Source of the DNA: Trueperaceae bacterium
GTDB lineage: Bacteria; Deinococcota; Deinococci; Deinococcales; Trueperaceae
Assembly (NCBI GenBank): GCA_040905465.1
Contig: JBBDRK010000036.1
Location: forward strand, 59,375-123,374
DNA: 64,000 nt
Direction of reading: 5' to 3'
Below are positions 5,414 through 39,446 of this stretch, one piece after another (the first letter of the stretch is position 1; each line of letters starts with the position of its first letter). The notes below the pieces were generated by a model that was not told where the DNA came from, searched no databases, and saw only the letters and a program-made list of their open reading frames with translations. The position numbers and the translations under genes are program-made.

Positions 5414-6412
5414 ATGAACCTCGCCCGCTTCGCCAGGCGCAGATACACCCCGGAACCGACGCCGCTGGAACCGCTGGAGCATCTCAGCAAACACCTCGGG
5501 GGCCCGGAGATCTGGATCAAGCGTGACGATCTGCTCGGCCTCGCCGGCGGAGGCAACAAGACCCGCAAGCTGGAATTCCTGGTTGCCGACGCCCTGGCCG
5601 AAGGTGCCGACACGCTGGTCACCGTCGGCGCCGTGCAGTCGAACCATTGCCGCCTCACGCTGGCGGCAGCCGTGAAGGAAGGGCTGCGCTGCCGGCTGGT
5701 GCTCGAGGAACGCGTGGCCAACTCGTACGACCCCGACGCCAGCGGCAACAACTTCCTGTTCCGCCTCCTGGGGGTCGAAGCGATCACAGTCGTGCCCGCC
5801 GGCACCGACCTGGCCGATGCTGTCGGCGAGGTGCTCGCCGACCTCGAGGCCGAGGGCCGCAAGGGTTACGCGATTCCGGGAGGAGGGTCCAACGCGCTCG
5901 GCGCGCTAGGTTACGCAGCCTGCGCTCAGGAGATCCTGCACCAGATGTTCAGGCAGAGCCTGACCTTCGACCGGCTCGTATGCGCGAGCGGATCGGGCGG
6001 CACACACGCCGGACTCGTCGCCGGCCTCCACGCCGACTCGGCCGGCCTGCCGGTAGTCGGAGTGAGCGTGCGGGCGGAGCGCGGCCCGCAGGAAGAGAAG
6101 CTCCACGCACTGGCGTTGCAAACGGCCGAACTGGCCGGAAGCCGCAGCGGAGTGCCGCGCGAGGCGATCGCGGTGGTGGACGACTACGTGGGACCTGGTT
6201 ACTCGCTGCCTACCGAGGACATGGTGGAGGCCGTGAGGCTATTCGCGCGACTCGAGGGCATCTTGCTCGACCCGGTCTACACCGGCAAGGCCGCCGCCGG
6301 TCTCGTCGGGATGGCAAGGGGTGGCCAGTTTGACAGCGATGAGCGGGTCCTGTTCCTGCACACCGGGGGCGCACCCGCGCTCTACGCCTACCAAAGCGTG
6401 ATACTCGAGTAG
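5414..6412 (+). CDS. PLP-dependent D-cysteine desulfhydrase / cysteate sulfo-lyase (CuyA/DcyD family)
   Basis: KRDDLLGLAGGGNKTRKLEF (PLP Lys), QSNHCR, SGSGGTHAG, LDPVYTGKA, FLHTGG; AAGGAG RBS. Confidence 0.9.
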   Translation: MNLARFARRRYTPEPTPLEPLEHLSKHLGGPEIWIKRDDLLGLAGGGNKTRKLEFLVADALAEGADTLVTVGAVQSNHCRLTLAAAVKEGLRCRLVLEERVANSYDPDASGNNFLFRLLGVEAITVVPAGTDLADAVGEVLADLEAEGRKGYAIPGGGSNALGALGYAACAQEILHQMFRQSLTFDRLVCASGSGGTHAGLVAGLHADSAGLPVVGVSVRAERGPQEEKLHALALQTAELAGSRSGVPREAIAVVDDYVGPGYSLPTEDMVEAVRLFARLEGILLDPVYTGKAAAGLVGMARGGQFDSDERVLFLHTGGAPALYAYQSVILE

Positions 6413-7146
6413 TGAGCCGGCCGACTCCAACTCTTACGGTGGGAGTGCTCGGCGGTATGGGTCCCGACGCCACCCTCGACTTCTTCGCCAAGTTGCTGGC
6501 GGCGACGCCCGCCGAACACGATCAGGACCGGCTGCGGGTGTTGATCGACAACAACCCGAAGGTGCCGAACCGCAACGAGGCGGTGGCCGGGACGGGACCC
6601 TCGCCGGGTCCGCTGCTGGCCGAGATGGCACTCGGGCTCGAGCGCGCCGGGGCGGACTTCCTGGTGATGCCGTGCAACGCCGCTCACGCCTTCGCGCCCG
6701 AGATCGAGGAGGCGGCGAGCATCCCCTTCGTGAGCATCATCGACGAGACCGTGGCCGCCACGTTGGCGGCGCGGCCCCCTCTCGATCGGGTCGGAGTACT
6801 GGCCGCAGCCGGCTGCCTGGACGCGCGGCTCTACCACTCGGCGTTCGCCCGACATGGCGTGGAGGTGGCAGAGCCCGAGGGCGCGCAGCGCGAGACATTC
6901 ATGGAGCTGCTGTACCGGATCAAGACCGGCGACCGGGGTGCCGAGGTGCGCGCCCGCATGGCCGAGCTGGCCGGACGCCTGATCGACGGCGGCGCCCAGG
7001 CGATCGTGGCCGGCTGTACCGAGGTTCCGCTGGTCCTGGCCGAAGGCGACGTGCCCGGCGTACTGGTGAACTCCACCGACGTCCTCGTGAAGGCGACGGC
7101 GGCGATTGCCACCGGCGAACGATCGTTTGCGGCGACGATCCGATAG
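6412..7146 (+). CDS. PLP-independent amino-acid racemase, Asp/Glu racemase family (candidate cysteate racemase)
   Basis: GVLGGMGPDAT; both catalytic Cys motifs present (MPCNAAH, AGCTEVP); start overlaps the upstream stop. Confidence 0.88.
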   Translation: MSRPTPTLTVGVLGGMGPDATLDFFAKLLAATPAEHDQDRLRVLIDNNPKVPNRNEAVAGTGPSPGPLLAEMALGLERAGADFLVMPCNAAHAFAPEIEEAASIPFVSIIDETVAATLAARPPLDRVGVLAAAGCLDARLYHSAFARHGVEVAEPEGAQRETFMELLYRIKTGDRGAEVRARMAELAGRLIDGGAQAIVAGCTEVPLVLAEGDVPGVLVNSTDVLVKATAAIATGERSFAATIR

Positions 7147-7186
7147 CGGGCCGGAGCGGCGCCCGCCGGCAGATGCCCGTGAATCG

Positions 7187-7214
7187 AGTGAGGAAGCAAC
7201 AAGTGAGGAAGCAA
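7187..7214 (+). repeat. Direct duplication of AGTGAGGAAGCAA containing the RBS
   Basis: Identical 13-mers at 7187-7199 and 7202-7214, immediately before ATG 7214. Confidence 0.7.
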
Positions 7215-8173
7215 TGAACAAGATCGTCGTCTCCGAGTTCCTTCACCGGGACGCGCTCGACCTGCTGGCCGACCGGGCCGACCTCGAGTACGATCCGGGG
7301 CTGCACGAGCGGCCGGTGGACCTGAAGGCCGCGCTCACGGGCGCCGCGGCCCTGGTGGTGCGCAATCAGACGCAGGTCACGGCTCCTCTGCTGGCCGGTA
7401 CCTCGCTGCGCGCGGTGGGCCGGGTCGGTGTCGGCCTCGACAACCTCGACCTGACCGCCTTGCGCGAGGCAGGCGTGACCGTCACCTGGGCGCCCGGCAC
7501 CAACGCCACCAGCGTGGCCGAGTACGTCATCGGAGCGATGCTGTCGCTGGCCCGGCTCTTCCCCGAGACCTCGCCCAAGGTCCACGCCGGGCACTGGGAC
7601 CGTCAGGCGGCGATCGGGTTCGAGCTAAAGGGCCGCACCCTCGGGATAGTCGGACTGGGCGATATAGGCTCGCGTGTGGGCAGGCGCGCTCAGGCCCTCG
7701 GCATGCGGCTGTTGGCCAGCGACCCGGCACTGGGGCCCGAGTCGCCCGCCGTGCGGGAGCTCGGCGCGCGCCTGGTGCCGCTCGCGGAGCTGCTGGCCGA
7801 AGCCGACGTGGTGTCGCTGCACGCTCCGCTGCTGCCATCGACCCTGGGGATGATCGGCAGCGAGACGCTGGCGCTGATGAAGCCCGGCGGCTACTTGATC
7901 AACACCGCCAGGGGCGAGCTGGTGGACGAGAGGGCACTGGCGAGCGTGCTGCGCGACGGCAGGTTGGCGGGAGCCGCGCTCGACGTGCGAGACCCGGAGC
8001 CGCCCGGTGCGAGCGATCCTCTCAAGGGTCTGAGGAACGTGCTGCTCACGCCGCATATCGCCGGAGTGACCGAGGAGTCGCTGCGGCGGGCCTGCACTCA
8101 TGTGGCGGAGGATGTGCTGCGGGTGCTGAGCGGCGAAAGACCGGTGAGCGAGGTGCCGGAAGCAGCGGCGTGA
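7214..8173 (+). CDS. D-isomer-specific 2-hydroxyacid dehydrogenase, (S)-sulfolactate dehydrogenase SlcC-like
   Basis: IVVSEF start, ALVVRNQTQV, AVGRVGVGLDN, NATSVAEYV, GIVGLGDIG, INTARG, LLTPHIAGVTEES. No ACT domain, so not a full-length SerA. Confidence 0.85.
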   Translation: MNKIVVSEFLHRDALDLLADRADLEYDPGLHERPVDLKAALTGAAALVVRNQTQVTAPLLAGTSLRAVGRVGVGLDNLDLTALREAGVTVTWAPGTNATSVAEYVIGAMLSLARLFPETSPKVHAGHWDRQAAIGFELKGRTLGIVGLGDIGSRVGRRAQALGMRLLASDPALGPESPAVRELGARLVPLAELLAEADVVSLHAPLLPSTLGMIGSETLALMKPGGYLINTARGELVDERALASVLRDGRLAGAALDVRDPEPPGASDPLKGLRNVLLTPHIAGVTEESLRRACTHVAEDVLRVLSGERPVSEVPEAAA

Positions 8174-8185
8174 GGGCCCGACGCA

Positions 8186-8229
8186 TTGCGTCCAAAACCT
8201 TGACCCAATGGGACGCAAACCGCTAGGAT
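8186..8229 (+). promoter_or_regulatory. Sigma-70-type promoter overlapped by a TTGCGTCC-N17-GGACGCAA inverted repeat
   Basis: TTGACC 8200-8205, TAGGAT 8224-8229; repeat arms at 8186-8193 and 8211-8218. Confidence 0.55.
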
Positions 8230-8266
8230 TGCACCACACCACCCCCAGGTCAGGAGCGTCGCCCGT

Positions 8267-8767
8267 TTGAAGCCCGCCCCTTACGCACAGCTCGACTCTA
8301 CCGACAGGACGATCGTCGACTTCCTCCGTGAAGACGGCCGGATGCCCTACCGCGAGATCGCGCGGCGACTGGCCGTTTCGGAAAGCATGGTGCGCAAGCG
8401 GGTCAACCGGCTTCTCGACGAGGGCTGGATGCGCATCCTGGCGATCAGCGACCCGTTGCAACTGGGAGTGCCGATCCTCGCCACGACCTACCTGAACGTA
8501 AGCCCTCGGGCGGTGGAAGAGGTTACCGACAGCATCGCCCGTTGCGAGGCGGTGCGTTACGTTGCCCTCGGCATCGGCGCTCACAACGTGGTGGTCGAAT
8601 CGCTTCATGTCGACAACTCGGAGCTGCACCGGTTCATCCAACGCGAGTTGGGATTGGAGGGGATAATAAGCAGCGAGACGATTCAAGTGGTGAAGATCAA
8701 GAAGAGCGTGTGGGACTGGGAGATCAGGACCACACTCCAACCGACAGCTTCCTCAGAATCGGAGTGA
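8267..8767 (+). CDS. Lrp/AsnC family transcriptional regulator
   Basis: LDSTDRTIVDFLREDGRMPYREIARRLAVSESMVRKRVNRL HTH plus C-terminal RAM-like domain; TTG start. Confidence 0.9.
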   Translation: MKPAPYAQLDSTDRTIVDFLREDGRMPYREIARRLAVSESMVRKRVNRLLDEGWMRILAISDPLQLGVPILATTYLNVSPRAVEEVTDSIARCEAVRYVALGIGAHNVVVESLHVDNSELHRFIQRELGLEGIISSETIQVVKIKKSVWDWEIRTTLQPTASSESE

Positions 8768-8772
8768 TCCCA

Positions 8773-10281
8773 ATGATTCGAAACCGTTGCCGCCCCTTGC
8801 TCGCGCTCCTGCTCGCTGCCCTGCTCGGCCTCGCCACCGCTCAGCAGCAGGGCGGAACGCTGACGGCCGCCTGGGCACAGGACCCGGTGGGGCTGGACCC
8901 CCACCTGACCAGCGCCTATTCCAGCTTCCAGATCCTCGAAAACGTCCTGGACACGCTTGTTACGCTCGACGCTGGCCAGAACGTCGTGCCGTCGCTGGCT
9001 GAGTCGTGGGAGTCATCGGAGGACGGCCTGCAGTGGACATTCCACCTCAGGAGCGGCCTCAGCTTCTCGAACGGCCGGGCGCTCACCGCCGACGACGTGG
9101 TGTACACCTTCGAGCGGATGCTCGATCCGGAGACGGGCTCCGGCAACGCCTACCTGCTGGCGGGAGTAACCGACGTGGAGGCGGTCGACGACAGCACTGT
9201 CGTTCTCACGCTCGACGCCCCCAACGTCGCCCTTCTCGGACACCTGGCCGTGAACAAGTCGGTCGGGATCATCGCCCGCGAAAGCGTCGAAGACGGCACC
9301 ATAAACACCCGGCCGATCGGCAGCGGTCCGTTCAGGATCGCCGACTTCCAGCCGGGCACCCTGGTGCGGCTCGAGCGCAACGAGCACTACTGGCAAGATG
9401 GGCTCCCCTACCTCGACGCCATCGACATCCGAATCATTCCCGACGAGTCGGTGCGGCGCACGGCGCTGGTAACGGGCGACGTAGACTGGTCGATCAGCGT
9501 GCCTGCGCAGAGCGTGAGCGATCTCGACAGCAGCGACGAGGTAGTGATCGACCAGACCACGGCCGGCGCCTACTGGTACCTGGGAGTGAATACCGAGCGT
9601 GAACCGCTCGACGATCCCCGGGTGCGGCAGGCACTGTCGTACGCGCTGCAACGCGACAACATCGCCTTGGCAGCCGCTTTCGGCAACGCCCAGGCGACGC
9701 AGGACCCGATCCCCTCGTCGAGCTCGTGGGCGTTCGATTATGCGCCTTACGACTACGATCCGGAGCGCGCTCGTGAGCTCCTGGCCGAGGCCGGAGTCGG
9801 TGACGATTTCGTGCTCGAGCTCATGCCCACCACTCAGTACGAGGAGTCCATCCGCGTCGCCCAGGTGGTGCAGGCCAACCTTGCCGACATCGGCGTACAG
9901 GCGAGCATTCGAACCCTCGAATGGGCCGAATGGCTGGAGGAAGAGGGCGCCGGCAACTACGACACCTACGTGTGCTCATGGAACGCGCTGGTGGACCCCG
10001 ACGACTACTTCTACGCCCAGCACAAGACCGGCGAGGTCTTCAACTTCACCGGCTACAGCAACGACACCGTCGACGAGCTGCTCGAGCGGGGACGCGGCAC
10101 CGAAGACCTGATAGAACGCCTCCCCATCTACGAGCAGATCAACCGCATCATCGTCGATGAGGCTCCCTACATCTACCTCTACAATCCGCTCAACATCCAT
10201 GCCTACCGGCCTTATGTCGAAGGTTTCGAGGCGCGCCCGGATCAGGCCGTGCGCTTCGCGGAGACCTGGCTCGATCGTTGA
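8773..10281 (+). CDS. ABC transporter substrate-binding protein, family 5 (Dpp/Opp/Nik type)
   Basis: Signal peptide, GGTL, LDPH, PSLAESW, TADDVVYTFER, PIGSGPF, VRQALSYA. Confidence 0.92.
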   Translation: MIRNRCRPLLALLLAALLGLATAQQQGGTLTAAWAQDPVGLDPHLTSAYSSFQILENVLDTLVTLDAGQNVVPSLAESWESSEDGLQWTFHLRSGLSFSNGRALTADDVVYTFERMLDPETGSGNAYLLAGVTDVEAVDDSTVVLTLDAPNVALLGHLAVNKSVGIIARESVEDGTINTRPIGSGPFRIADFQPGTLVRLERNEHYWQDGLPYLDAIDIRIIPDESVRRTALVTGDVDWSISVPAQSVSDLDSSDEVVIDQTTAGAYWYLGVNTEREPLDDPRVRQALSYALQRDNIALAAAFGNAQATQDPIPSSSSWAFDYAPYDYDPERARELLAEAGVGDDFVLELMPTTQYEESIRVAQVVQANLADIGVQASIRTLEWAEWLEEEGAGNYDTYVCSWNALVDPDDYFYAQHKTGEVFNFTGYSNDTVDELLERGRGTEDLIERLPIYEQINRIIVDEAPYIYLYNPLNIHAYRPYVEGFEARPDQAVRFAETWLDR

Positions 10282-10284
10282 ATC

Positions 10285-10321
10285 GGTTGCGTCCGGGCGG
10301 TTCCTCCGCCCGGACGCAACC
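10285..10321 (+). terminator. Perfect 16-bp hairpin after the SBP gene (terminator or mRNA stabiliser)
   Basis: GGTTGCGTCCGGGCGG-TTCCT-CCGCCCGGACGCAACC; no strong U tract. Confidence 0.65.
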
Positions 10322-10391
10322 CTCCCTCCATGACCATCCGGCCGGTCCCTAGCTCCCCGGGGCGCCCCGCCCCGAGCCTCCGGAGGCGAAG

Positions 10392-11342
10392 ATGACCCTC
10401 CGCTATCTCATGCAACGAGTCGGCAGCCTGATCCTCGTGCTGTTCGGCGTTTCTCTTCTTACCTTCGCGATCATCCCGCTCATCCCCGGCAGCCCCGCGA
10501 GGGTTCGCCTGGGCGTGCAGGCCACGCCCGAATCGGTCGCCGCCGTGGAGCGTCAACTGGGTCTCGACCGGCCGCTCCCGGTTCAATATGTCGACTGGTT
10601 GGGTGGGATCGTGCTGCACGGCGACTTCGGCGAGAGCCTGATCACCGGCACGCCGATCTCGGGCGAGGTGGCGCGGCGCCTGCCGGCAACCCTGGCACTC
10701 GCCTTCACGGCACTGCTGTTCGGCCTGCTGATCGCCCTGCCTTCCGGTATCATCTCGGCGCTGAAGCCCGGCGGACGGCGTGACCTCACGGTATCGCTCA
10801 TGAGCCAGATAGGAGTCTCGGTCCCTGACTTCTGGATGGGGATACTGATGATCCTGCTGTTCGCCGAGACTCTCGACTGGCTCCCATCCAGCGGCTACGT
10901 CCCCTTGGCGCAAGGCTTCCTGCCGTGGCTCAGCCATATTTTGCTTCCGGCCGCCACCGTCGGCATCATCAGCGGCTCGATCATGGCTCGCTTCGTGCGC
11001 GGCGCGATGCTGGAGGTGCTGCGTAACGACTATGTCCGCACGGCCCGGGCCAAGGGCCTGCGCGAAGGCGCGATACTCGTCAAGCACGTCTTGCGCAACG
11101 CGGCCATTTCGGTGGTCACCATCGTCGGCCTGCAGATGGCCACGCTCTTCTCCGCCGTCGTAGTGGTGGAGATCATCTTCGCCTGGCCCGGGCTGGGGTC
11201 GATGGCGCTCAATGCCACGCTGCAGCGAGACTATCCGCTGCTGCAGGCCGCGGTGCTGAGCGCGGCGGGAGCGTTCGTTATCATCAACCTCCTCACCGAC
11301 CTGTCCTACGTTCTCCTGGACCCGAGCGTCGAATATGCCTGA
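10392..11342 (+). CDS. Peptide/nickel ABC permease (DppB type)
   Basis: LGLDRPLPVQY, GDFGES, EAA loop DYVRTARAKGL, RDYPLLQ. Confidence 0.93.
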   Translation: MTLRYLMQRVGSLILVLFGVSLLTFAIIPLIPGSPARVRLGVQATPESVAAVERQLGLDRPLPVQYVDWLGGIVLHGDFGESLITGTPISGEVARRLPATLALAFTALLFGLLIALPSGIISALKPGGRRDLTVSLMSQIGVSVPDFWMGILMILLFAETLDWLPSSGYVPLAQGFLPWLSHILLPAATVGIISGSIMARFVRGAMLEVLRNDYVRTARAKGLREGAILVKHVLRNAAISVVTIVGLQMATLFSAVVVVEIIFAWPGLGSMALNATLQRDYPLLQAAVLSAAGAFVIINLLTDLSYVLLDPSVEYA

Positions 11343-12237
11343 GGCCGGCAGGACCGAGACGGGCTCGCTCACCACGACGCCGTCACGTGGCGCAGGCACG
11401 AAGGGCGCCGCGGCACGCTTCTTCGCCCGCTTCCTGCGCCACCGCCTGGCCCTGGCCGGCACCCTGATAGTCCTCCTGCTCACAGTTACCGCCCTGTTCG
11501 GCGGCGCCTACGCCCCTTACAGCCCAACCACCATGGATTTCAGCGCCCAGTTCGCGCCGCCCAGCCTGGCCCATCCCTTCGGCACCGACGAGTTCGGACG
11601 CGACCTGTTCTCACGCGTTCTGCACGGCGCAGCCATCTCCTTGCGGGTGGCGTTGATCGCCGTCGGCATCTCATCGCTGGTCGGCGTGACGCTCGGGGTC
11701 CTGGCGGGCTTCCTGGGCGGCTGGGTCGACGAGCTGACTATGCGCTTCATGGACGTCCTCTTCGCCTTCCCGGCGGTCCTGCTGGCGATAACCGTGATGG
11801 CGATCCTCGGACGCGGCGTCGGAAACGCGATGATCGCCATCGCCATCGTCTACATCCCGATCTTCGCGCGGATAACGCGAGGAGCGGTAATCGGCGTGCG
11901 TGGCCGGGAGTTCGTCACTGCCGCCAGGGCTCTGGGCGTGCGTCCGGGCGGCATCATGCTGCGCCACGTGCTCCCCAACGCCACCGGTCCCATCATCGTA
12001 CAGACCTCGCTGAGCCTGGCGTTCGCCATCCTCGCGGAGGCGGCGCTGTCGTTCTTCGGCCTGGGAACCCAGCCTCCCGCTCCGTCGTGGGGCAGGATGC
12101 TGGCAGAGGGCCGGGCGTACCTGGGGCAGGCACCCTGGATGGGTATCTTCCCGGGGCTGGCGATAATGGTGTCGGTGATGGGCTTCAACCTCCTCGGTGA
12201 CGGACTGCGCGACCTGCTCGACCCGCGCCTCAAGTGA
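11335..12237 (+). CDS. Peptide/nickel ABC permease (DppC type)
   Basis: HPFGTDEFGRDLFSR, EFVTAARALG, HVLPN, EAALSFFGLG, NLLGDGLRDLLDP. Confidence 0.93.
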   Translation: MPEAGRTETGSLTTTPSRGAGTKGAAARFFARFLRHRLALAGTLIVLLLTVTALFGGAYAPYSPTTMDFSAQFAPPSLAHPFGTDEFGRDLFSRVLHGAAISLRVALIAVGISSLVGVTLGVLAGFLGGWVDELTMRFMDVLFAFPAVLLAITVMAILGRGVGNAMIAIAIVYIPIFARITRGAVIGVRGREFVTAARALGVRPGGIMLRHVLPNATGPIIVQTSLSLAFAILAEAALSFFGLGTQPPAPSWGRMLAEGRAYLGQAPWMGIFPGLAIMVSVMGFNLLGDGLRDLLDPRLK

Positions 12238-16551: not shown

Positions 16552-17624
16552 GAGCCGTACCTGCGGTGCCAGCCGCGGCCGCCCAGCTCCAGTGCGGCCG
16601 CACCACGGTAGCGCGGATGGGAGAACCATGGTCGTCCCGAGTCCGCCAGGCCGGCGATCGAGCGGAGGAACGGCAACGACTCGCTCTCCAGCTTCGCGCG
16701 CACGGCCGGGAGGTCGGGGTACGGTTCGAGCGCGCCGAACCAGACCGCCCGGCCGGCCAGGAAGCCGCTCGCTCCAGCGGCGATGGCGAGCTCGATATCG
16801 ACAGCGAACTCGCGTTGGCCCACGCCGGCCGACAGCAGCACCCATGGAACGGGACAGGACTCGTCCAACTCGCGCAGGCACGCTTCCACTTCGGCAAGCC
16901 GGTATGCGACCGGCCGCTCGCGGCCGTCGAAGGCGCCTCCGGCGAACTCACGGGTGTGCTTGAGGTCGGCCGGGAACTCGAGCTTGAAGAGATCCACGCC
17001 GAAGCGGTCCTCGGCGAAGTGCCGTAATGATGCCAGCACCCGCTGCGGCTTGAGCCTGGCGTAGTCGAGCCCGTCGCTGCGCTCGTCTCCCTTGGGGTAG
17101 AGCAGCAGTTCCAGGATGAACGGGATGTCGTGCTCTCGGCAGGCCGCACCTACGCCTTCGACGAACGCGTCCTGGTGTGCGGCCGCCGCGGCGGACAGGT
17201 CGGGCCGGTGATAGGCGAGCACCTTCACCCCCGACGCTCCGCTGCGCTTTATCTTGGCCACGCTCCAGCCCTCTATCGGCACCGAGTAGCGCTCTCCGCC
17301 CTTTTCCTCGAATGCGTAGTCCTCCAGGGTCGAGACGAGCCCTACCCGACCGGGGATGAAAGCCAGGGCGTCCGGGTGCGCCCAGATGGGATCAACCAGG
17401 ATGGCGCTGGCGTGGGAAGCGAGTCCGGCGACCAGCAGCGTCTTGACGGCGGCGATCTCCTCGTCGCGAACGTCCTCGAGGCGCCTCTCGCCGTGGCGGG
17501 CAAGGGCCCGGAACAGGGGCGGACGCTGATCGACGGCCACCATCTTGAAGAGCCCGCGGTCGTCCGCGAGCGTCTGCAGGCAGCGGAATTTGCCGGCGCT
17601 CAGAAGCGCCTTCGGCTGGCTCAT
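16548..17624 (-). CDS. Class I aldolase of the tagatose-1,6-bisphosphate (LacD) / sulfofructosephosphate (YihT) family
   Basis: KMVAVDQR, ASAILVDP, DLFKLEFP (Schiff-base Lys), PWVLLSAGV, GASGFLAGRAVW; GAGGAG RBS. Confidence 0.88.
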   Translation of the reverse strand: MSQPKALLSAGKFRCLQTLADDRGLFKMVAVDQRPPLFRALARHGERRLEDVRDEEIAAVKTLLVAGLASHASAILVDPIWAHPDALAFIPGRVGLVSTLEDYAFEEKGGERYSVPIEGWSVAKIKRSGASGVKVLAYHRPDLSAAAAAHQDAFVEGVGAACREHDIPFILELLLYPKGDERSDGLDYARLKPQRVLASLRHFAEDRFGVDLFKLEFPADLKHTREFAGGAFDGRERPVAYRLAEVEACLRELDESCPVPWVLLSAGVGQREFAVDIELAIAAGASGFLAGRAVWFGALEPYPDLPAVRAKLESESLPFLRSIAGLADSGRPWFSHPRYRGAAALELGGRGWHRRYGS

Positions 17625-17661
17625 GGTGCTCTCCTCGGTTTCGCCTGCGCAGCGCGCGAAG

Positions 17662-18639
17662 TCATCGGGCACGCCTCGGCGCTGAAGCCTGAGTCGGTCG
17701 GGCCGGGCGCTCCTTCAGCGCCTGCTCGACCTCGACCAACGTGGGTATGGCGGAGCGCCCCACCCCGGTGCACGACAGTGCCGCGCAGACGAGCGCCAGC
17801 TCGGCGCAGCGCTCCGGTCCCCAACCCGACGCCATCCCGAACGCGTAGGCGCCGTGGAACACGTCACCGGCGCCGGTAGTGTCGACCGCCTCGACCTCGT
17901 GGGCGGGAAGGTAGTGCACTCCGGCGCCGGCGTCGTAAAGATACCCTTCCGTGCCCAGCGTCACTCCCACGTACTGACCAGGCCGCCAGCGCATTGCGGC
18001 CAGGGCGGACTCGGGATCGGACCGGCCCAGCACCTCGCGCGCGCACTCTTCCGAGGCGATGACCACGTCCAGCCCCTCGCTTTCCTCCCAGTAGCGGGCG
18101 GTTCCCAAGTCGCCGATGCTCGGTACGCCTCGTGCGGCGGCCCAGTCGAGGGCCGCCCGGCACAGGTTCGGATGCCGGAAATCGACCAATAGCGCGCCCG
18201 GCGGCGGCGAAGTCACGGACGCCGGCGGCCGGTCGTCGAGGCCGGAACCGCGATAGGGAAAGATGTAGCGCTCGCCGTCGGGGGCCACCAGCACTCCGCT
18301 GACCCAGGAGACCGCTCCGGGCGTCACCCGTACGCCGCTGGTGTCCACTCCCAGCCGCTCGAGCTCCGCCAGCGCGAACCGTCCGGCCGGGTCGTCTCCG
18401 TGCAACGCCCACAGGTGCGGGCGTCCCCCCAGCCTGGCGACAGTCACGGCCGCCGTGGCAGCCGGACCGCCACCCTGCAAGCGATATCCGCTCGCGTCGG
18501 TCCGCGATCCCGCCGGCGGAAATCTCTCCACCTGCCAGATGTGATCCACACAGGAGAGTCCGGCGCAGAGCACGACCGGGGAGGCGGCTTCGGGCACAAT
18601 CGCGTTTCGCTCAGCGGGAGTATCCACCGTTGCCGCCAC
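17662..18639 (-). CDS. PfkB family sugar kinase, sulfofructose kinase YihV-like
   Basis: GGGPAATAAVTVARLG, DGER, LVDFRH, VDTTGAGDVFHGA. Start uncertain (GTG at 18639, 18627 or 18597). Confidence 0.88.
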   Translation of the reverse strand: MAATVDTPAERNAIVPEAASPVVLCAGLSCVDHIWQVERFPPAGSRTDASGYRLQGGGPAATAAVTVARLGGRPHLWALHGDDPAGRFALAELERLGVDTSGVRVTPGAVSWVSGVLVAPDGERYIFPYRGSGLDDRPPASVTSPPPGALLVDFRHPNLCRAALDWAAARGVPSIGDLGTARYWEESEGLDVVIASEECAREVLGRSDPESALAAMRWRPGQYVGVTLGTEGYLYDAGAGVHYLPAHEVEAVDTTGAGDVFHGAYAFGMASGWGPERCAELALVCAALSCTGVGRSAIPTLVEVEQALKERPARPTQASAPRRAR

Positions 18640-18836
18640 GATACCAGTGCCGCGGCCCGAAACCCTTGCCCGCCCACCGGCGGCGTGCTAGTTTCATGCC
18701 ATCGACAATCGAAATGGCCCGTACTCGCCGAGACGCGGGTGCGGATCGCCATCTGCGCTCAAGTAGCCGCCGGCAACACACCGGCCTTCAGCGACCGCCC
18801 CACAGGATCGCGTGGCCGGCACGAGAAGGAGGAACG

Positions 18837-20096
18837 ATGAGACGACGACAGTTCACCATTGTGGCGATGCTGATCCTCGTGCTGTTGGTCCCGCTGGCGT
18901 CGGCCCAAGCGCTCCGGGTTTTCATCGGCTCGACGCTGAGGCCCGACGTGATCGGTCCCATCCTCGAACAGTTCACTGCCGAGACCGGCATCGACACCGA
19001 ACTCGAACTGGGCGGAGCGACGACCGACGTTCGCCAGCAATACCTCTCAACTGTGCTCACCAGCCGCAGTGGAGAGATAGACGTGTTCCTGTTCGACGTG
19101 ATCGATCCGCCCCAGTACGCCGCCACGGGCTGGGCCGAGCCGCTCAACGATTACTTCGATGGCGAGGCGGAGATGCGGGAGTTTCTCGACCCGTACCTCG
19201 ACGGCACCGTGCAGGCGAACCTGGTCGACGGCACGCTCTACGGCATCCCTGCCTGGACCGACGCCCAGTTCCTCTACTACCGGACCGACCTGCTGGAGAA
19301 GTACGGATTCGAGCCGCCGAGCACCTGGAGCGAGCTGAAGCAACAGGCGCTGGTCATCCAGGAGGGCGAAGGCGATCCGAACCTGCAGGGCTTCAACTAC
19401 CAGGGCGCGGCCATCGAGGGCGCCAACTGCACCTTCCTCGAGCCGCTGTGGAGCGCCGGCGGCGACTGGCGCGACAGCGACGGGAACATCACCGTCGACA
19501 GCCCGGAGGGGCGAATGGTGCTCGACTGGTATCAGGAGACCATGGACTCCGGCATCACTCCGAGCAACATCGCGGAAGTGGCCACAGACGACTCGCGCCA
19601 GCAGTTCCAGGCCGGCGACGTTGTGTACATGCTGAACTGGGGTTACGCCTGGGCGCACTTCCAGGGCGAGGAGAGCCCGGTCAGGGGCATGGTCGGGGTG
19701 GCGCCGTTGCCCGCCTTCGAGGGGGGCCAGTCGGCCACCTGCGTGGGCGGATTCCAGTGGGCAATGAACCCGTTCAGCGACAACAAGGCGGATGCGTTCG
19801 AGCTCATGAAGTACATGGCCAGTGAAGACAGCCAGCGCACCCTGGCGGTCGAAGCCAGCCACATCCCGGCGCGCGACAGCCTCTACGGCGACGACGCCGT
19901 ACTCGAGGCCGCGCCGCACTTCGAGCAGTTCCATGACGTCATCGTCAACGCCCGGCCGCGACCGCAGACCGAGTTCTACAGCGAGGTGAGCGAGCTGATT
20001 CGCACCACCATGAACGCCTTCCTGGCGCAGGCGATGGACGCCGACGAAGCGCTCGACACCATGCAGACGGGCCTCGAAGACATATTCGGACTCTGA
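18837..20096 (+). CDS. Sugar ABC transporter substrate-binding protein (family 1)
   Basis: Signal peptide, LYYRTDLLEKYG, PSTWSEL, FQAGD, ARPRP; AGGAGG RBS. Confidence 0.92.
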   Translation: MRRRQFTIVAMLILVLLVPLASAQALRVFIGSTLRPDVIGPILEQFTAETGIDTELELGGATTDVRQQYLSTVLTSRSGEIDVFLFDVIDPPQYAATGWAEPLNDYFDGEAEMREFLDPYLDGTVQANLVDGTLYGIPAWTDAQFLYYRTDLLEKYGFEPPSTWSELKQQALVIQEGEGDPNLQGFNYQGAAIEGANCTFLEPLWSAGGDWRDSDGNITVDSPEGRMVLDWYQETMDSGITPSNIAEVATDDSRQQFQAGDVVYMLNWGYAWAHFQGEESPVRGMVGVAPLPAFEGGQSATCVGGFQWAMNPFSDNKADAFELMKYMASEDSQRTLAVEASHIPARDSLYGDDAVLEAAPHFEQFHDVIVNARPRPQTEFYSEVSELIRTTMNAFLAQAMDADEALDTMQTGLEDIFGL

Positions 20097-20112
20097 GGGC
20101 AGCACCCGGAGT

Positions 20113-20137
20113 CGGGGGCGCGGCTTCCGCGCCCCCG
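20113..20137 (+). terminator. GC-rich hairpin after the sugar SBP gene
   Basis: CGGGGGCGCGG-CTT-CCGCGCCCCCG. Confidence 0.6.
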
Positions 20138-20142
20138 TTCTG

Positions 20143-21243
20143 ATGGCGGCTACGTCGGCACCCTACCGCCGGCCCGGCCCCTTGCAGCGGTTGCTGCGTG
20201 GCAACCCGAGCGAGACTCAACTCGCCTGGCTGCTGCTGTTGCCGGCACTGCTGACCCTGGCAGTGGTGATGCTCTACCCGGTACTCAACGTAGTCTGGCA
20301 ATCGCTCCACTTCGAACGGCTGAACCTGCCACAACGAGGCACGCCGTTCATCGGGCTGGAAAACTTCCGCGACATGCTGTGGGGCCGGAGCATGACCTGG
20401 GGCCCCGGTCACCTGTGGGGCTGGCGGATCGCCGGACTGGCGGCGCTTGCTCCGGTCTGGTGGGCGCTGCCTTGGCGCCGGGCGCTGCCGTGGACGGTGC
20501 TGATCCTCCTGGTGTTCGCCCTCCTGCTCGGCTTCCACCCCGGCGAGGACGGCCGCTGGAACGACCGGCGTTTCTGGGGCTCCTTTCGGATCACCATGCT
20601 GATAATTATGGTCAGCGTGATCGGCTCGTTCCTGGTGGGCCTGCCGCTGGCGCTGCTGGCTAACGTGTCGTCGCGCTGGCGCTGGCTGGTTCGGGTGGCG
20701 CTGCTCCTGCCCTGGGCGATGCCGCGGGTGTTCGCCGGGCTCACCTTCGCCTGGCTGTTCCAGAGCCGCTACGGGGTGGTAAACGACCTGATCGGCCAGA
20801 TCGGCCTGACCGGGCCCCTGTGGCTCGCCCGGGTGACCCCGGCGGTGATCGCCGTCAACCTGGCGATAGTCTGGAAGACCTCCTCGTTCGTGGGCCTGAT
20901 CCTCCTGGCCGGCCTGCAGTCGATCGACCGCAGCCTCTACGAAGCCGCCACCGTCGACGGCGCCAACGCCTGGCAGCGCTTCTGGCGCATAACTCTGCCG
21001 CTTTTGCGGCCGGCCATCGCAGTGGCCCTGATCTTCCGGACGCTGACCGCGGTGCAGACCTTCGACATTCCCTACGCCATGACCCGAGGCGGGCCCGGCA
21101 GGTCGCTGGAAACCCTCGGAATCTACATCTACAACAGCACGCTGGCGCTCAATATCGGCTACGCCGCGGCCCTCTCGGTGGTCTTGTTCCTGCTCAGCCT
21201 CTCGATCACCGTCATCTATCTCCGCTGGCTCTACCGCGAATGA
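20143..21243 (+). CDS. Sugar ABC permease (MalF type) with an extra Trp-rich hydrophobic insert
   Basis: FIGLENF, LAGLQSIDRSLYEAATVDGA, ITLPLLRP, MTRGGPG. Confidence 0.92.
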   Translation: MAATSAPYRRPGPLQRLLRGNPSETQLAWLLLLPALLTLAVVMLYPVLNVVWQSLHFERLNLPQRGTPFIGLENFRDMLWGRSMTWGPGHLWGWRIAGLAALAPVWWALPWRRALPWTVLILLVFALLLGFHPGEDGRWNDRRFWGSFRITMLIIMVSVIGSFLVGLPLALLANVSSRWRWLVRVALLLPWAMPRVFAGLTFAWLFQSRYGVVNDLIGQIGLTGPLWLARVTPAVIAVNLAIVWKTSSFVGLILLAGLQSIDRSLYEAATVDGANAWQRFWRITLPLLRPAIAVALIFRTLTAVQTFDIPYAMTRGGPGRSLETLGIYIYNSTLALNIGYAAALSVVLFLLSLSITVIYLRWLYRE

Positions 21244-22106
21244 ACCGCCCTCCGTCCCGCTTCGCCCGGCTTCTCCTCGGATTCGGCCTGCTGCTGGTGA
21301 TCGTAAACGGGCTGTTCCCGCCGTTGTGGCTCATCCTCACCTCGTTCAAGCGCGAGAACGAGCTTACCCGGCTGCCGATAACCTACTGGCCCGCCGACCC
21401 GACCCTTGCCAACTACGCAGCGGTTTTCACCGAGAACCCCTTCGGGCGGTTCATGCTCAACTCGGCAGTGGTCTCGGTTGCGGCCACGCTCGTCTGCGTG
21501 CTGTTCGCGGCGCTTGCGGGCTATGCGCTGGCGCGGCTGCGCCTGCCGGGACGGCGGGGCATCCTCACCGGGATAGTGGTGACCAGCATGTTTCCGGCCC
21601 TGGTGCTGCTGGTTCCGCTCTACCGGATGTTCGTGGGTTTCGAGATTCTGGGCCTGGGCTGGTTTACGCCCAACCTGCTCAACAGCTACTGGGCGCTGAT
21701 CATCCCCTACGTCGCGCTGTCTTTGCCCATCGCCACACTGATCCTCACCAGCTTCTTCCAACTTATTCCCGACGAGCTGGAGAACGCCGCGGTAGTCGAC
21801 GGTTGCAGCCGGCTGGGCGCCCTTTTTCGGGTAGTGGCGCCACTCTCCGCACCGGGCGTGGTTACGGCGGCCATCATCGTCTTCGTGAACTCCTGGAACG
21901 AGTTCCTGCTGGCGCTCACCTTCAACAGCGCACTGAGCATGCGGACCGTCCCGGTCGGCATCACCCTCTACCAGGGCGAGTACTCTTTTCCCTGGGCGGT
22001 CATCAGCGCCGCCGTGACGCTGGGCATCCTGCCGCTGGTGGTGCTGATCATCTTCTTCCAGCAGCGGATCATCAGCGGGCTGACCGCCGGCGGGGTGAAG
22101 GGGTAG
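21240..22106 (+). CDS. Sugar ABC permease (MalG type)
   Basis: PTLANY, AGYALARL, IPDELENAAVVDG, WNEFLLAL, FQQRIISGLTAGGVKG. Confidence 0.93.
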   Translation: MNRPPSRFARLLLGFGLLLVIVNGLFPPLWLILTSFKRENELTRLPITYWPADPTLANYAAVFTENPFGRFMLNSAVVSVAATLVCVLFAALAGYALARLRLPGRRGILTGIVVTSMFPALVLLVPLYRMFVGFEILGLGWFTPNLLNSYWALIIPYVALSLPIATLILTSFFQLIPDELENAAVVDGCSRLGALFRVVAPLSAPGVVTAAIIVFVNSWNEFLLALTFNSALSMRTVPVGITLYQGEYSFPWAVISAAVTLGILPLVVLIIFFQQRIISGLTAGGVKG

Positions 22107-22185
22107 CGGTTCCGATGCGACCCCGCTCCATTGTTGTTGCTCGAGGCGGACACAGCCCTGCCGAACATGATACCATCGACTCGCC

Positions 22186-22758
22186 ATGACTGATACCATC
22201 AGCGGTGGCGTTAGCCCCTCCGGCCGCTTCATGTTGAGGATCGCCCCGAGCCTGCACGCCAGCTTGCGCAAGGCTGCCCAGCAGGCTGGACTTTCACTCA
22301 ACGACCTTTGCGCTCGCAGACTGGCGGCGCCCATAACCGACGCCGGCGGTCCGGGCGCGGCCATCGCCGCCCGCGCGGCCGGTCAGTTCGGCGATTCGCT
22401 ATGCGGGGTAATCGCCCACGGTTCCTGGGCGCGGGACGAGCTCGCCAGCGACTCCGATGTCGACGTGCTGATCGTGGTGGACGACGAGGTGCGGATAACC
22501 CGCGATCTCTACCGAGCATGGGACGACCGGACCCTCACCTGGCACTCCCGTGACGTAGACGTTCACTTCGCGCACTCGCCGGGCAGCGGCGAGCAGCCTG
22601 GAGGGATATGGCTAGAGGTCGCGATCGACGGAGTCGTACTGTTCGACCGCGACCTGCGCCTGTCCCGTACGCTTGCCGAAATCCGGTCGCTGGTAGCCGC
22701 CGGCAGAATAGCCAGGCACCGCGCCCACGGTCAGTCGTACTGGGTGGAGGCCCGCTGA
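22186..22758 (+). CDS. Minimal nucleotidyltransferase (MNT) antitoxin with an N-terminal HicB-like RHH domain
   Basis: SGRFMLRIAPSLHASL...GLSLNDLC, then HGSWARD...SDSDVDVLIV. Confidence 0.8.
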   Translation: MTDTISGGVSPSGRFMLRIAPSLHASLRKAAQQAGLSLNDLCARRLAAPITDAGGPGAAIAARAAGQFGDSLCGVIAHGSWARDELASDSDVDVLIVVDDEVRITRDLYRAWDDRTLTWHSRDVDVHFAHSPGSGEQPGGIWLEVAIDGVVLFDRDLRLSRTLAEIRSLVAAGRIARHRAHGQSYWVEAR

Positions 22759-22760
22759 CG

Positions 22761-23180
22761 ATGCGCAACCCCGACCTGGCTCGTGACCACCTGCGACGCG
22801 CCGAAGCGAGACTACGCGCCCTCGACGTCCTTTACGAGGCCGAAAGCTGGGCCGACGTAGTACGCGAGTCCCAGGAGATCGTCGAACTCACGCTCAAGGC
22901 CCTGCTCAGGGCTTCGCTCATCGAACCTCCGCGAGTCCACGACGTTTCCGACGTGCTCCGCGCCCATCGCGACAAGCTGCCGCATGCGCTCGCACACCAG
23001 ATAGAAGCCCTGGCCGCGATCTCTCGTGACCTGCGCCGCGACCGGGAGCTCGCTTTCTGTGGGGCAGAGGACCTTACCCCCTCAGACTTCTATTCCCGCG
23101 AAGACGCCGAGAGCGCACGCGCCGGTGCCCGCAAGACCGTCGAGCTGGTAGCGCCTCATGTGGCGGGAGGTCCGGCGTAG
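22761..23180 (+). CDS. HEPN domain protein (partner of the MNT)
   Basis: WADVVRESQEIVELTLKALLR, PPRVHDV, RRDRELAF, YSREDA; GGAGG RBS. Confidence 0.82.
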   Translation: MRNPDLARDHLRRAEARLRALDVLYEAESWADVVRESQEIVELTLKALLRASLIEPPRVHDVSDVLRAHRDKLPHALAHQIEALAAISRDLRRDRELAFCGAEDLTPSDFYSREDAESARAGARKTVELVAPHVAGGPA

Positions 23181-23289
23181 GCGGTAAAGCCATCGGCCAG
23201 GGAGGTGGTTGGCTTGGGAGGACCCGAAACGAAACCTTCGGTTCTCTCGCAAAGTCCCGCCGGCAATGAGGCGCACGGTAGTCTGAGGC

Positions 23290-24714
23290 ATGTCGGTACG
23301 CATCGGATTCGTGGCGGTAATACGTCCGCTGTTCAAGGGGCACTCCCCGGATGCGGCCGAGCGAAGCCGCCAAGGGCTCCTCCGGCTCGGTAGGGAGCTC
23401 GGCTTCGAGCTGATGACGCCGGCCCTGGCCCAGGACGTGACCCACATTGCGACGGGAACTCCGTTGCCGGCCTTCGCGATCCACGACCAGGAGAGCGCTG
23501 AGCATGCGGCCGCACGATTGAACGATGCCGACCTAGACCTGCTGCTGGTCCAGCACACTACCTTCGCCACCGGCGAGCTGCTGGCGCCGCTTCTGCGGCT
23601 GCCGCTGCCGCTGGCTTTGTGGGCGCTGCCCGAAGCGGCGGGCGGACGTGGAGAGCAGGGTCCGCTGCCACTCAACTCGCTTTGTGGCGTGAACATGACC
23701 GTGAGCTTCTCCGGCCGCGAGCCGGTGGGCCGCGAACTGCCGGTCAAGTGGCTGTACGGCGAGGCCGACTCCTCGTGGTTTCGTAGTCGCCTGCAACCGA
23801 CGCTGGTGGCGTTGCGCGCGCTACGGGCGCTGCGGGGCGCCAGCGTGCTGCAGATCGGCGGCACGGCACCTCACTTCTACGGCCTGGAAGAGGATCCGGT
23901 CGTCGCCGATGTGCGCGTGGAACGAATGGCGCTGGCCGAGCTGTTCGACGAAGTGGCGCGCGTGCCGGCAGCCGACGCCGCGGCCCTGGCACGGGACTGG
24001 CGCGAGCGCGAAGCCGTGGCGGTCGATCAGGAGCAACTCGAGCGCGCGGCGGCACTCGAGCTGGCGTTAGGCGAGCTGGTAGCCGGCAATGGCCACGCAG
24101 CGGTAGCCCTGCGCTGCTGGCCGGAGCTTCCGGACCGCTGCGCAACTATGGCCTGTTCGACTCTGGCGCGTCTCGGTGACGGGCGCGTGGCGGCAGCCTG
24201 CGAAGGGGACGTGATGGGAGCGGTCTCGATGCTCGCCCTGCAGGGAGCGACCGGCGACGGGGCGCTGTTGCTCGACCTTTCCGACCTCGACGACGAGCGC
24301 GGCGTTCTCTTCTGGCATTGCGGGAACAGCCCGCTCAGCTGGGCCGGCGAGTCAGGCGCCCTTCTGGCGACACACTTCAACCGCGACGGCGTCGGTACCG
24401 TGCGCGACATGGTGATCAGGCCGGGACCGGCGACCGGTTTCCGGCTGCTGGACGGCGGCAGGCGAGCCCTGCTGTTCGGCGGCAGCTTCACCGGGGAGGT
24501 CATCGGCTTCGACGGCGTGCGCGGCTGGCTGCGCGACATCAGTTGGGACGGCAGGGCGCTGACACCGCGGCGGTTCCTCGGCAACGTGCTGGACCAGCGA
24601 GTACCGCACCATTTCGCGTTCGGCAGCGGCGACGTGAGCGAGGGCCTGCGGGAGCTGTGCGGCTGGCTCGGCAGCGCGCCGCTGCCGGCGGGGCCGGAGC
24701 GCAACACGCTCTGA
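23290..24714 (+). CDS. L-fucose/L-arabinose isomerase family sugar isomerase (SqvD-like candidate)
   Basis: QHTTFATGE, LWALPE, LNSLCG, ALRCWPE, AACEGD, FWHCG, PHH; TAGTCT 5 nt before the ATG. Confidence 0.82.
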   Translation: MSVRIGFVAVIRPLFKGHSPDAAERSRQGLLRLGRELGFELMTPALAQDVTHIATGTPLPAFAIHDQESAEHAAARLNDADLDLLLVQHTTFATGELLAPLLRLPLPLALWALPEAAGGRGEQGPLPLNSLCGVNMTVSFSGREPVGRELPVKWLYGEADSSWFRSRLQPTLVALRALRALRGASVLQIGGTAPHFYGLEEDPVVADVRVERMALAELFDEVARVPAADAAALARDWREREAVAVDQEQLERAAALELALGELVAGNGHAAVALRCWPELPDRCATMACSTLARLGDGRVAAACEGDVMGAVSMLALQGATGDGALLLDLSDLDDERGVLFWHCGNSPLSWAGESGALLATHFNRDGVGTVRDMVIRPGPATGFRLLDGGRRALLFGGSFTGEVIGFDGVRGWLRDISWDGRALTPRRFLGNVLDQRVPHHFAFGSGDVSEGLRELCGWLGSAPLPAGPERNTL

Positions 24715-39399: not shown

Positions 39400-39446
39400 G
39401 CTTGAGGCAGCAGACAGCCTTTCAGTACCTCGGAGGGAGTGAGTCC

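Follow-up and report, generated by a model that had tools for sequence, protein, structure and literature searches.

Positions 5414-24714 of a 64,000-bp stretch of Trueperaceae DNA (assembly GCA_040905465.1, contig JBBDRK010000036.1, positions 59,375 to 123,374; the whole stretch is called the window below) hold two joined gene modules that, with a probability we put at about two in three, would together break a 6-sulfonated hexose, likeliest sulfoquinovose (SQ) or SQ glycosides, down to sulfite. SQ is a plant sulfosugar, and its breakdown is commonly portrayed as a relay in which one bacterium excretes a C3 sulfonate and another frees the sulfur. The locus, which about half of the Trueperaceae genomes in the sample carry, is a testable candidate for a single-cell SQ route and could merge this shared job in one organism. 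It is real and conserved, and probably directed at SQ.

Four lines of evidence were computed directly: the family membership of the lyase CuyA and the racemase CuyB, the likeness of the sugar-binding protein to SmoF, synteny, and co-occurrence. From sequence and gene context we infer the substrates, the aldehyde oxidation, the transamination and the roles of two Gfo/Idh/MocA oxidoreductases (Gfo1 and Gfo2). In the first module (14483-24714) a SmoF-like ABC system would import the sulfosugar, a divergent isomerase of the SftI/SqvD family would convert SQ to sulfofructose, a YihV-like PfkB kinase would form sulfofructose-1-phosphate, and a class I aldolase of the LacD/YihT superfamily would split the latter into dihydroxyacetone phosphate (DHAP) and sulfolactaldehyde. 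In the second module (5414-8173) an SlcC-like 2-hydroxyacid dehydrogenase (HADH) would oxidise sulfolactate to sulfopyruvate, L-cysteate would be made by a housekeeping aminotransferase whose gene lies elsewhere, CuyB would turn this into D-cysteate, and CuyA would release pyruvate, ammonium and sulfite.

The coupling of a sulfosugar isomerase, kinase and aldolase to sulfolactate/cysteate desulfonation had been put forward earlier from the letters and reading frames of this DNA (the sequence-only reading). In silico it is well supported, by the equivalog matches of CuyA and CuyB, the SmoF and YihV relationships, homologous clusters marked by SQ genes and linkage across 8 genera. Its limits are that the aldolase is nearer LacD, the isomerase scores far below the SftI cut-off and HADH is missing in some sister clusters.

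Conservation of the locus

The G + C content of the window is 64-70%. Coding frames were picked by their third-position GC content and then scanned against Pfam and NCBIfam. All genes named in the sequence-only reading (a fucose-isomerase-like gene, a sugar ABC system, a PfkB kinase, a class I aldolase, two Gfo/Idh/MocA genes and a pyridoxal phosphate (PLP)-dependent lyase with racemase and dehydrogenase) were found within 5414-24714, each where it had been placed (Table 1). In the same span a peptide-type ABC set, a 763-amino-acid (aa) protein and an MNT/HEPN pair had gone unmentioned.

Conservation was assessed in 52 related loci with an isomerase at least 43% identical to that of the window. 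Many of these are on short contigs, and neighbours were counted within at most 10 kb. The kinase was present in 44, Gfo2 in 39, Gfo1 in 36 and the aldolase in 35 of them. The arrangement is no product of chance.

The sugar module

The best PDB match of the binding protein was SmoF (7nbz, E 1.5e-99, 337 bits); a trehalose/maltose binder came second with 245 bits. In the SmoF pocket, as set out in the part of PMC8940949 that was available, the sulfonate is held by Q12, S43, G166 and T220, and the sugar is contacted by H13, D67, D113, W276 and R345. The ligand contacts listed in that part were compared over the printed alignment. Five of the nine are identical in the window protein (D67, D113, G166, T220 and R345); S43, which makes its contact via the backbone, is T, and T, L and F stand in place of Q12, H13 and W276. 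Across 23 members of the family, which span four phyla, D67, D113, T220 and R345 were kept in all 23, and S43, G166 and W276 were nearly invariant. Most members retain seven of the nine contacts (S43, D67, D113, G166, T220, W276 and R345), and approximately half also retain Q12. We propose SQ or SQ glycosides as the putative ligand.

The isomerase had no Pfam match. In all 60 family members an E, a D and an H align with E337, D361 and H528 of Escherichia coli FucI, which we take to be its catalytic and metal positions. According to the accessible portion of PMC9594981, SqvD retains the Mn ligands. In a quick tree with SH-aLRT support only, the Trueperaceae isomerases formed one group, with the isomerases of Deinococcus peraridilitoris and Fervidifonticultor as sister. 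As a distant relative of SftI/SqvD, the enzyme is proposed to convert SQ to sulfofructose.

For the kinase the PDB matches were 2rbc, an uncharacterised Agrobacterium kinase (139 bits), YihV (112 bits) and ribokinases (at most 88 bits). The sulfofructose kinase YihV is thus its nearest characterised relative (35% identity to the E. coli K-12 record). YihV binds the sulfonate through the triad K27-N109-R138 (PMC8006165). R138 and the catalytic D244 were kept in 26 of 26 family members, and the residue at the K27 position was R in 22 members and K in the other 4; in E. coli ribokinase these two cationic positions (K27 and R138) are occupied by E and T. The proposed function is that of a sulfofructose 1-kinase. 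Genome G000 encodes another PfkB kinase, with 37% identity to YihV (contig C20, locus L084, positions 2686-3783). It was set aside as a pathway member: its neighbours are an enolase-superfamily gene, a major facilitator superfamily (MFS) transporter and a sugar ABC system, and it looks to be of the sugar-acid type.

The aldolase scored 302.8 bits on PRK12858 (cut-off 184), a model on which E. coli YihT reaches 137 bits. The Schiff-base lysine K193 of YihT, together with S226 and R253 of its anion pocket, was kept in 35 of 35 family members, residues that may not discriminate YihT from LacD. The positions of S227 and A26 of YihT are occupied by A and P. We propose that the enzyme cleaves sulfofructose-1-phosphate to DHAP and sulfolactaldehyde.

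The desulfonation module

CuyA scored 517.7 bits on the NCBIfam equivalog NF052482 (cut-off 450), and its runner-up family, D-cysteine desulfhydrase, gave 301.7 bits against a cut-off of 429. CuyB, the start of which overlaps the cuyA stop at 6412, scored 270.7 bits on the equivalog NF052483 (cut-off 190). Both models rest on Bilophila enzymes, as stated in the available text of PMC11193023. CuyA is predicted to yield pyruvate, ammonium and sulfite from D-cysteate.

The top NCBIfam match of HADH was 3-phosphoglycerate dehydrogenase (PGDH), with 275 bits under a cut-off of 454. In a 2-hydroxyacid dehydrogenase survey (PMC6303947), the characterised (S)-sulfolactate dehydrogenase SlcC falls within or beside the SERA/PGDH clade and does not use 3-phosphoglycerate. 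Because of this position of SlcC, a PGDH match below the cut-off fits an SlcC-type enzyme, and we propose that HADH would convert sulfolactate to sulfopyruvate.

Two further genes stand to the left of cuyA. The DeoC-type aldolase, a recurrent CuyA neighbour, scored 142 bits on its model (cut-off 117.3). The aldehyde dehydrogenase (ALDH) gene encodes 803 aa with a Pfam Aldedh domain at residues 48-485. Its C-terminal 346 aa contain, in frame, a second, half-length Aldedh match, which shares 26% identity with the first domain's initial half. By NCBIfam the protein is not of the GabD/SSADH type. It is a possible candidate for the sulfolactaldehyde dehydrogenase.

Linkage of the two modules in Trueperaceae

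The family sample consisted of 121 genomes, one of them flagged as unpublished (G033). Matches to the isomerase came from 60 genomes, in 24 of the 36 genera, and matches to CuyA from 103 genomes. The two lie on a shared contig in 18 genomes, and for 15 of the 18, from 8 genera, the distance is 6.6-17.9 kb; the remaining three pairs are separated by 46 kb, 311 kb and 1.7 Mb. Genomes G020 and G030 were excluded from this count, as their isomerase matches are paralogues of 31-35% identity. Synteny across Trueperaceae had been suggested earlier as a check on the co-occurrence of the two halves, and they do co-occur, within 20 kb in these 15 genomes.

The search for HADH scored no more than 17 candidates per genome, which makes its count a lower bound. 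An orthologue was found in at least 38 of the 121 genomes, and 36 of these 38 also carry the isomerase; the two others are 87% and 79% complete. The surroundings of CuyA in 12 genomes lacking the isomerase contained HADH in none, CuyB in 10 and DeoC plus ALDH in 9. In G003 and G038 HADH still adjoins CuyB though the sugar genes are far off. Because HADH tracks the isomerase, is absent from the CuyA loci of isomerase-less genomes and stays at CuyB in these two genomes, it marks the link between the sugar and the desulfonation halves.

Homologous clusters in other bacteria

In total 79 loci around isomerase relatives were collected, their open reading frames (ORFs) clustered and the recurrent neighbours annotated. 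The Proteobacterial loci L078 and L079 have an ABC system, kinase, aldolase and isomerase that are 32-55% identical to those of the window. Their neighbours encode a GH188 SqgA (E 3.4e-145 to 8qc2), a two-subunit SuyAB-like dehydratase, a ComC-like dehydrogenase, an HADH homologue and a YeiH exporter. At the Alicyclobacillus loci the isomerase is accompanied by SqiK-like genes of the PfkA type, SqiA-like genes of class II, an aldehyde dehydrogenase and an HADH homologue, and one of them, L065, adds a GH31 above the cut-off of the YihQ model (907 vs 553 bits). HADH of the window is 43-49% identical to its homologues at the Alicyclobacillaceae/Sporolactobacillaceae loci L065, L066, L071, L076 and L077, and 44-45% identical to those of the Proteobacterial SQ clusters, which adjoin ComC-like and SuyAB-like genes.

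A cultured strain is represented as well. Locus L176 is on the megaplasmid of Deinococcus peraridilitoris DSM 19664 (NC_019789.1, 91365-101607), and its binding protein (42%), isomerase (40%), PfkB kinase (33%) and class I aldolase (40%) resemble those of the window. It also contains permeases, a GH31, an AEC exporter, a GabD-like aldehyde dehydrogenase and a GntR regulator. CuyA was not found on this plasmid, the only replicon of the strain that was searched. The plasmid cluster of this cultured strain makes bench work feasible.

The GH31 of L176 (16996-19182) belongs to a clade, also seen at L035 (11352-13565), L038 and L081, that is nearer to alpha-xylosidase than to YihQ and lacks W304 and Y508 of YihQ. 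Members of this clade adjoin the isomerase in Deinococcus, in Fervidifonticultor and in a Rhodospirillales metagenome-assembled genome, where the gene stands beside SuyB-like and ComC-like genes. The clade may represent a sulfoquinovosidase type not yet recognised.

The Gfo/Idh/MocA pair

The nearest solved relatives of Gfo1 are 1,5-anhydro-D-fructose reductases (E 5.5e-20), and that of Gfo2 is an inositol 2-dehydrogenase (E 3.3e-21). Orthologues of Gfo1 were restricted to Trueperaceae/Deinococcales records. Outside these groups the scan found no relative above 37% identity, at partial length, and because there are no close outside relatives, the outside context suggests no role for Gfo1. The sulfonate loop of SqgA (R166 to K172) aligns with a conserved WRRPYR in Gfo1 and with RPK in Gfo2, and Tyr136 of SqgA is kept in neither. 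Both proteins were considered as GH188 orthologues and rejected: their E values to 8qc2/8qc3 (1e-11 to 1e-14) are no better than those to many other family members.

Among 55 Gfo1 loci surveyed, seven Trueperaceae loci (L116, L119, L121, L124, L134, L135 and L161) hold the SmoF-like ABC system with Gfo2 and Gfo1 and have no isomerase, kinase or aldolase within 10 kb. In these variant loci a prolyl oligopeptidase gene precedes the ABC and Gfo genes, and the binding proteins keep seven of the nine SmoF contacts. Since the pair travels with the SmoF-like ABC system at these loci, our leading guess is that it carries out an entry step, an NAD-dependent processing of the imported sulfosugar or glycoside. 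As an alternative, the pair might oxidise sulfolactaldehyde or sulfolactate; this role stays viable because clusters without the Gfo pair tend to have a GabD-like dehydrogenase instead.

Weighing the proposed route

A number of observations weigh against the route proposed here, and the first group concerns enzymes that were looked for and not found. The source genome is 95% complete, and no sulfoquinovosidase was detected in the locus or elsewhere in this genome. Its single full-length GH31 reaches 205.8 bits on the YihQ model (cut-off 553) and lacks R301, W304 and Y508 of YihQ, and its closest SqgA-like match (29% identity, E 1e-13) reflects generic Gfo/Idh/MocA similarity. No sulfolactaldehyde reductase or GabD-type dehydrogenase is encoded within 5414-24714, and no aminotransferase or sulfite exporter within the window. 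On other contigs of the genome there are a GabD-like gene, two TauE genes, one sulfite-oxidase-type gene and generic YihU-like matches of at most 36% identity. Orthologues of YihS, YihQ and YihR, as well as SuyAB and ComC, were not found in the genome. The sequence-only reading had listed a GH31 sulfoquinovosidase, a dedicated sulfolactaldehyde dehydrogenase, an aminotransferase and a sulfite exporter as missing; this list holds, save that it took no account of the ALDH gene just outside the span under study.

The second group concerns the enzymes of the sugar module. The sole NCBIfam match of the isomerase is indeed SftI (NF048012), in line with the SqvD-type enzyme claimed earlier and with its aligned FucI residues, but at 124.3 bits it is far from the cut-off of 700. 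Homologues in clusters marked by SQ genes are also under this cut-off (423 bits in L077, 292 in L081 and 269 in L078), which argues that the SftI/SqvD model is narrow. In the kinase, N109 of the YihV triad is lost in nearly all members, 22 of the 26 having P at this position, 3 having S and 1 having N. For the aldolase, 8tnf (E 8.6e-69) and LacD (about 1e-39) are closer PDB matches than YihT (about 1e-15; 26% identity); a literature search on 8tnf gave unrelated papers only. Of the LacD/YihT-type aldolase of the sequence-only reading, class I membership and the three YihT residues are retained, while the enzyme is clearly nearer to LacD and 8tnf than to YihT. The seven variant loci described above, without isomerase, kinase or aldolase, belong on the same side. 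In four (L116, L134, L135 and L161) a TIM-barrel gene resembling IolE was called, at 237.5 bits against a cut-off of 290.

The third group concerns the linkage. Related genomes, such as those of the family sample, are non-independent samples. Six linked clusters were examined, chosen for having no HADH in the genome search: HADH was absent from five (G006, which is of the same genus, G027, G052, G074 and G118), and the sixth (G100) has an HADH fragment only. CuyA is also commoner than the isomerase and keeps its DeoC and ALDH neighbours in isomerase-less genomes, from which we conclude that it serves other substrates too.

This last group bears on the explanation that competes best, in which both modules are real but uncoupled: SQ would be degraded to an excreted C3 sulfonate, the outcome of classical sulfoglycolysis, CuyAB would serve imported cysteate or related sulfonates, and the adjacency would reflect a shared 'sulfonate island'. 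The excess of CuyA over the isomerase, the retention of CuyB, DeoC and ALDH at CuyA loci of isomerase-less genomes, the five linked clusters without HADH and the absence of an aminotransferase from the window would all be expected. Further, the CuyAB operon continues into its own peptide-type ABC importer, the family-5 binding protein of which accompanies CuyAB in many relatives, whether or not the sugar genes are there. Uncoupled modules do not readily account for the 15 of 18 same-contig pairs lying less than 20 kb apart in 8 genera, nor for an SlcC-like HADH that tracks the isomerase rather than CuyA and remains beside CuyB in G003 and G038 despite distant sugar genes. Moreover, no exporter gene was seen in the sugar module by Pfam. 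We consider this explanation unlikely.

Less probable still is that the sugar module acts on another sulfonated or otherwise anionic hexose, for example sulfofucose, sulforhamnose or one specific glycoside of SQ, with the Gfo pair converting the substrate by a redox reaction ahead of the isomerase, kinase and aldolase. A LacD-like aldolase is a tagatose-type enzyme, the isomerase is strongly divergent from SftI, and the two extra oxidoreductases are conserved and lineage-restricted. In addition, an orphan pair of PfkB and PF01791 proteins beside SlcC, ComC and SuyAB might act on sulfotagatose, as suggested in PMC12421959. Set against this, the SmoF residues for the C3/C4 hydroxyls (D67 and R345) and the C2 hydroxyl (D113) of SQ were kept in 23 of 23 members, and the SQ-specific glycosidases SqgA and YihQ occur in homologous clusters.

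The least probable explanation is a pathway for a neutral sugar or cyclitol (inositol-, tagatose- or deoxyhexose-like) that lies beside a cysteate operon by chance. It draws on the generic top families of the proteins (IolG-like for the Gfo pair, 'tagatose 1,6-diphosphate aldolase' and ribokinase-like), on the DUF2090 label of the best solved relative of the aldolase, a domain reportedly proposed as an inositol-pathway aldolase in the GapMind papers, on the pairing of ABC and Gfo genes with the IolE-like protein at the variant loci, and on the sulfoquinovosidase that was not found in the genome. E. coli YihT and YihV were run as a control and reached just the 'tagatose 1,6-diphosphate aldolase' and 'ribokinase' models, below the cut-off. 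The neutral-sugar names on the window kinase and aldolase therefore carry no weight. An inositol pathway was rejected, with no IolD or IolB in the cluster by Pfam and 75 bits on the IolC model (cut-off 300), and a neutral substrate would leave unexplained the SmoF match and pocket, the cationic YihV positions, the linkage to CuyAB and SlcC-like genes and the SQ markers in homologous clusters.

The coupled route to sulfite thus remains the preferred reading. A fuller version of it, in which Trueperaceae mineralise SQ non-oxygenolytically in one cell, with an EMP-type (Embden-Meyerhof-Parnas) split followed by C-S cleavage via cysteate (SlcC-like dehydrogenase, transaminase, CuyB and CuyA) and not via SuyAB, and with the Gfo pair as a new NAD-dependent entry step replacing the missing sulfoquinovosidase, is one that we regard as possible and rather doubtful as a whole.

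Other features of the window

The positions of the genes of the locus and of its direct neighbours are given in Table 1.

Table 1. Genes at and beside the candidate sulfosugar locus (positions in the window)
Feature	Position	Strand	Basis or remark
Aldehyde dehydrogenase (ALDH) with extra C-terminal half-ALDH-like domain	1860-4271	-	Pfam Aldedh
DeoC-type class I aldolase (deoxyribose-phosphate aldolase)	4282-5274	-	TIGR00126; divergent from cuyA
CuyA, PLP-dependent D-cysteate sulfo-lyase	5414-6412	+	NCBIfam NF052482
CuyB, cysteate racemase	6412-7146	+	NCBIfam NF052483
PGDH/SlcC-like D-2-hydroxyacid dehydrogenase (HADH)	7106-8173, likely start 7214	+	Pfam 2-Hacid_dh, 2-Hacid_dh_C
Family-5 (peptide/opine-type) ABC binding protein	8542-10281, likely start 8773	+	Pfam SBP_bac_5
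Two DppB/DppC-type permeases	10392-11342, 11335-12237	+	Pfam BPD_transp_1, OppC_N
763-aa membrane protein	12234-14525	+	Last gene of peptide-type ABC operon
Gfo1, Gfo/Idh/MocA oxidoreductase	14483-15484	-	Pfam
Gfo2, Gfo/Idh/MocA oxidoreductase	15481-16551 (ORF to 16881; likely start 16551)	-	Pfam; start overlaps aldolase stop
Class I DeoC/LacD-family aldolase	16548-17672	-	NCBIfam PRK12858
PfkB-family kinase	17662-18639	-	PDB matches
SmoF-like family-1 sugar ABC binding protein (CUT1)	18630-20096, likely start 18837	+	PDB match SmoF
Two sugar ABC permeases	20143-21243, 21240-22106	+	Pfam BPD_transp_1
MNT nucleotidyltransferase/HEPN pair (toxin-antitoxin type)	22186-23180	+	Pfam NTP_transf_2/HicB, HEPN
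Fucose-isomerase-superfamily aldose-ketose isomerase	23290-24714	+	NCBIfam SftI match
ThiI	24731-26227	-	Just right of the span

The nearest solved relatives of the family-5 ABC binding protein are dipeptide-, glutathione- and opine-binding proteins (E about 1e-60), and the start at 8773 gives it a signal peptide. No ATPase gene was seen near the peptide-type ABC set. About 600 bases between the HADH stop and this likely start (8173-8773) contain no called gene, and there was no Rfam match there or anywhere else in the window. The 763-aa protein had no Pfam or NCBIfam match and was kept in 13 of the 52 related loci. Its Atlas model matched 'spermine/spermidine synthase family' clusters (TM 0.92), and the predicted fold, a membrane protein with a spermidine-synthase-like domain, rules it out as a hidden glycosidase.

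The MNT/HEPN pair splits the second sugar permease from the isomerase; it is absent at 79 of 79 related loci and is outside the pathway. Further to the right, the window contains a TRAP transporter (DctQ, DctM and DctP) and a phosphonate-type ABC system (PhnD-like binding protein, ATPase and two permeases) at 39375-42609 and 44668-48077, and at 56931-59972 on the minus strand an ORF of 1013 aa with coding-type third-position GC and no Pfam match.

Comparison with known systems

The locus shares its proposed intermediates with the sulfo-EMP pathway of E. coli, along with a PfkB kinase 35% identical to YihV, in which R138 is retained and R takes the place of K27, and a class I Schiff-base aldolase. 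It differs in that the isomerase is of the FucI/SftI superfamily and not YihS, and in that import would be by an ABC system and not by YihO. E. coli also has the sulfoquinovosidase YihQ and the reductase YihU, whereas the source genome has no YihQ orthologue. With the sulfo-EMP2 pathway of Bacillus urumqiensis (SqvD, SqiK and SqiA) it has the isomerase family in common; its kinase is of the PfkB and not the PfkA type, and its aldolase belongs to class I instead of class II.

Mosaic sulfo-EMP1/2 clusters in which non-orthologous isozymes are swapped have already been published (PMC9594981 and PMC10665668), and were reported, in the text available from these papers, from Proteobacteria, Actinobacteria and Firmicutes; the window locus is from Deinococcota. 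A hybrid as such, in a combination of which the sequence-only reading knew no description, is therefore not new. No report of sulfoglycolysis in Deinococcota was found: the string 'Deinococc' is absent from the available texts of PMC12890257, PMC13436972, PMC10665668 and PMC11193023, and a literature search combining SQ with Truepera or Deinococcus was not discriminating. According to a 2026 review (PMC13436972), full SQ catabolism by a single organism is undemonstrated outside oxygenolytic routes. The novelty lies in the phylum, in the join to CuyAB and in an unassigned Gfo pair in a setting without a known sulfoquinovosidase.

On the transport side, the window protein shares five of the nine ligand contacts, T220 and G166 in the sulfonate pocket among them, with SmoF of Agrobacterium tumefaciens, a sulfoquinovosyl-glycerol binder. 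Unlike in SmoF, Q12, H13 and W276 are replaced here, and SmoF serves an oxygenolytic and not a glycolytic pathway. Gfo1 and Gfo2 have the same Gfo/Idh/MocA fold as the NAD+-dependent sulfoquinovosidase SqgA of GH188 (PMC10755693, as far as its text was available) and Arg/Lys residues in the loop aligned with its sulfonate loop, but they are not orthologues and Tyr136 is not kept. The pair may explain how the organism copes without a known sulfoquinovosidase.

On the desulfonation side, CuyA and CuyB pass the equivalog models built on the enzymes of Bilophila wadsworthia and Ruegeria pomeroyi, in which, according to PMC11193023, L-cysteate is converted to D-cysteate and then to pyruvate, ammonium and sulfite. 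In contrast to those systems, the window pair is in an operon with an SlcC-like dehydrogenase and beside sulfosugar genes, and the source organism does not reduce sulfite and belongs to an aerobic lineage of Deinococcota. As in the SlcC/ComC/SuyAB system of Chromohalobacter salexigens, an SlcC-like dehydrogenase would feed sulfopyruvate to a C-S lyase route, and, as in the tandem sulfofucose pathway of Paracoccus wurundjeri (PMC12421959, part of the text), sugar splitting and desulfonation are in one cluster. The source genome differs from both in having no SuyAB or ComC, so that sugar splitting is joined to the CuyAB lyase instead and C-S cleavage would run via cysteate and CuyA; compared with P. 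wurundjeri, the sugar route would be EMP-type and not ED-type (Entner-Doudoroff).

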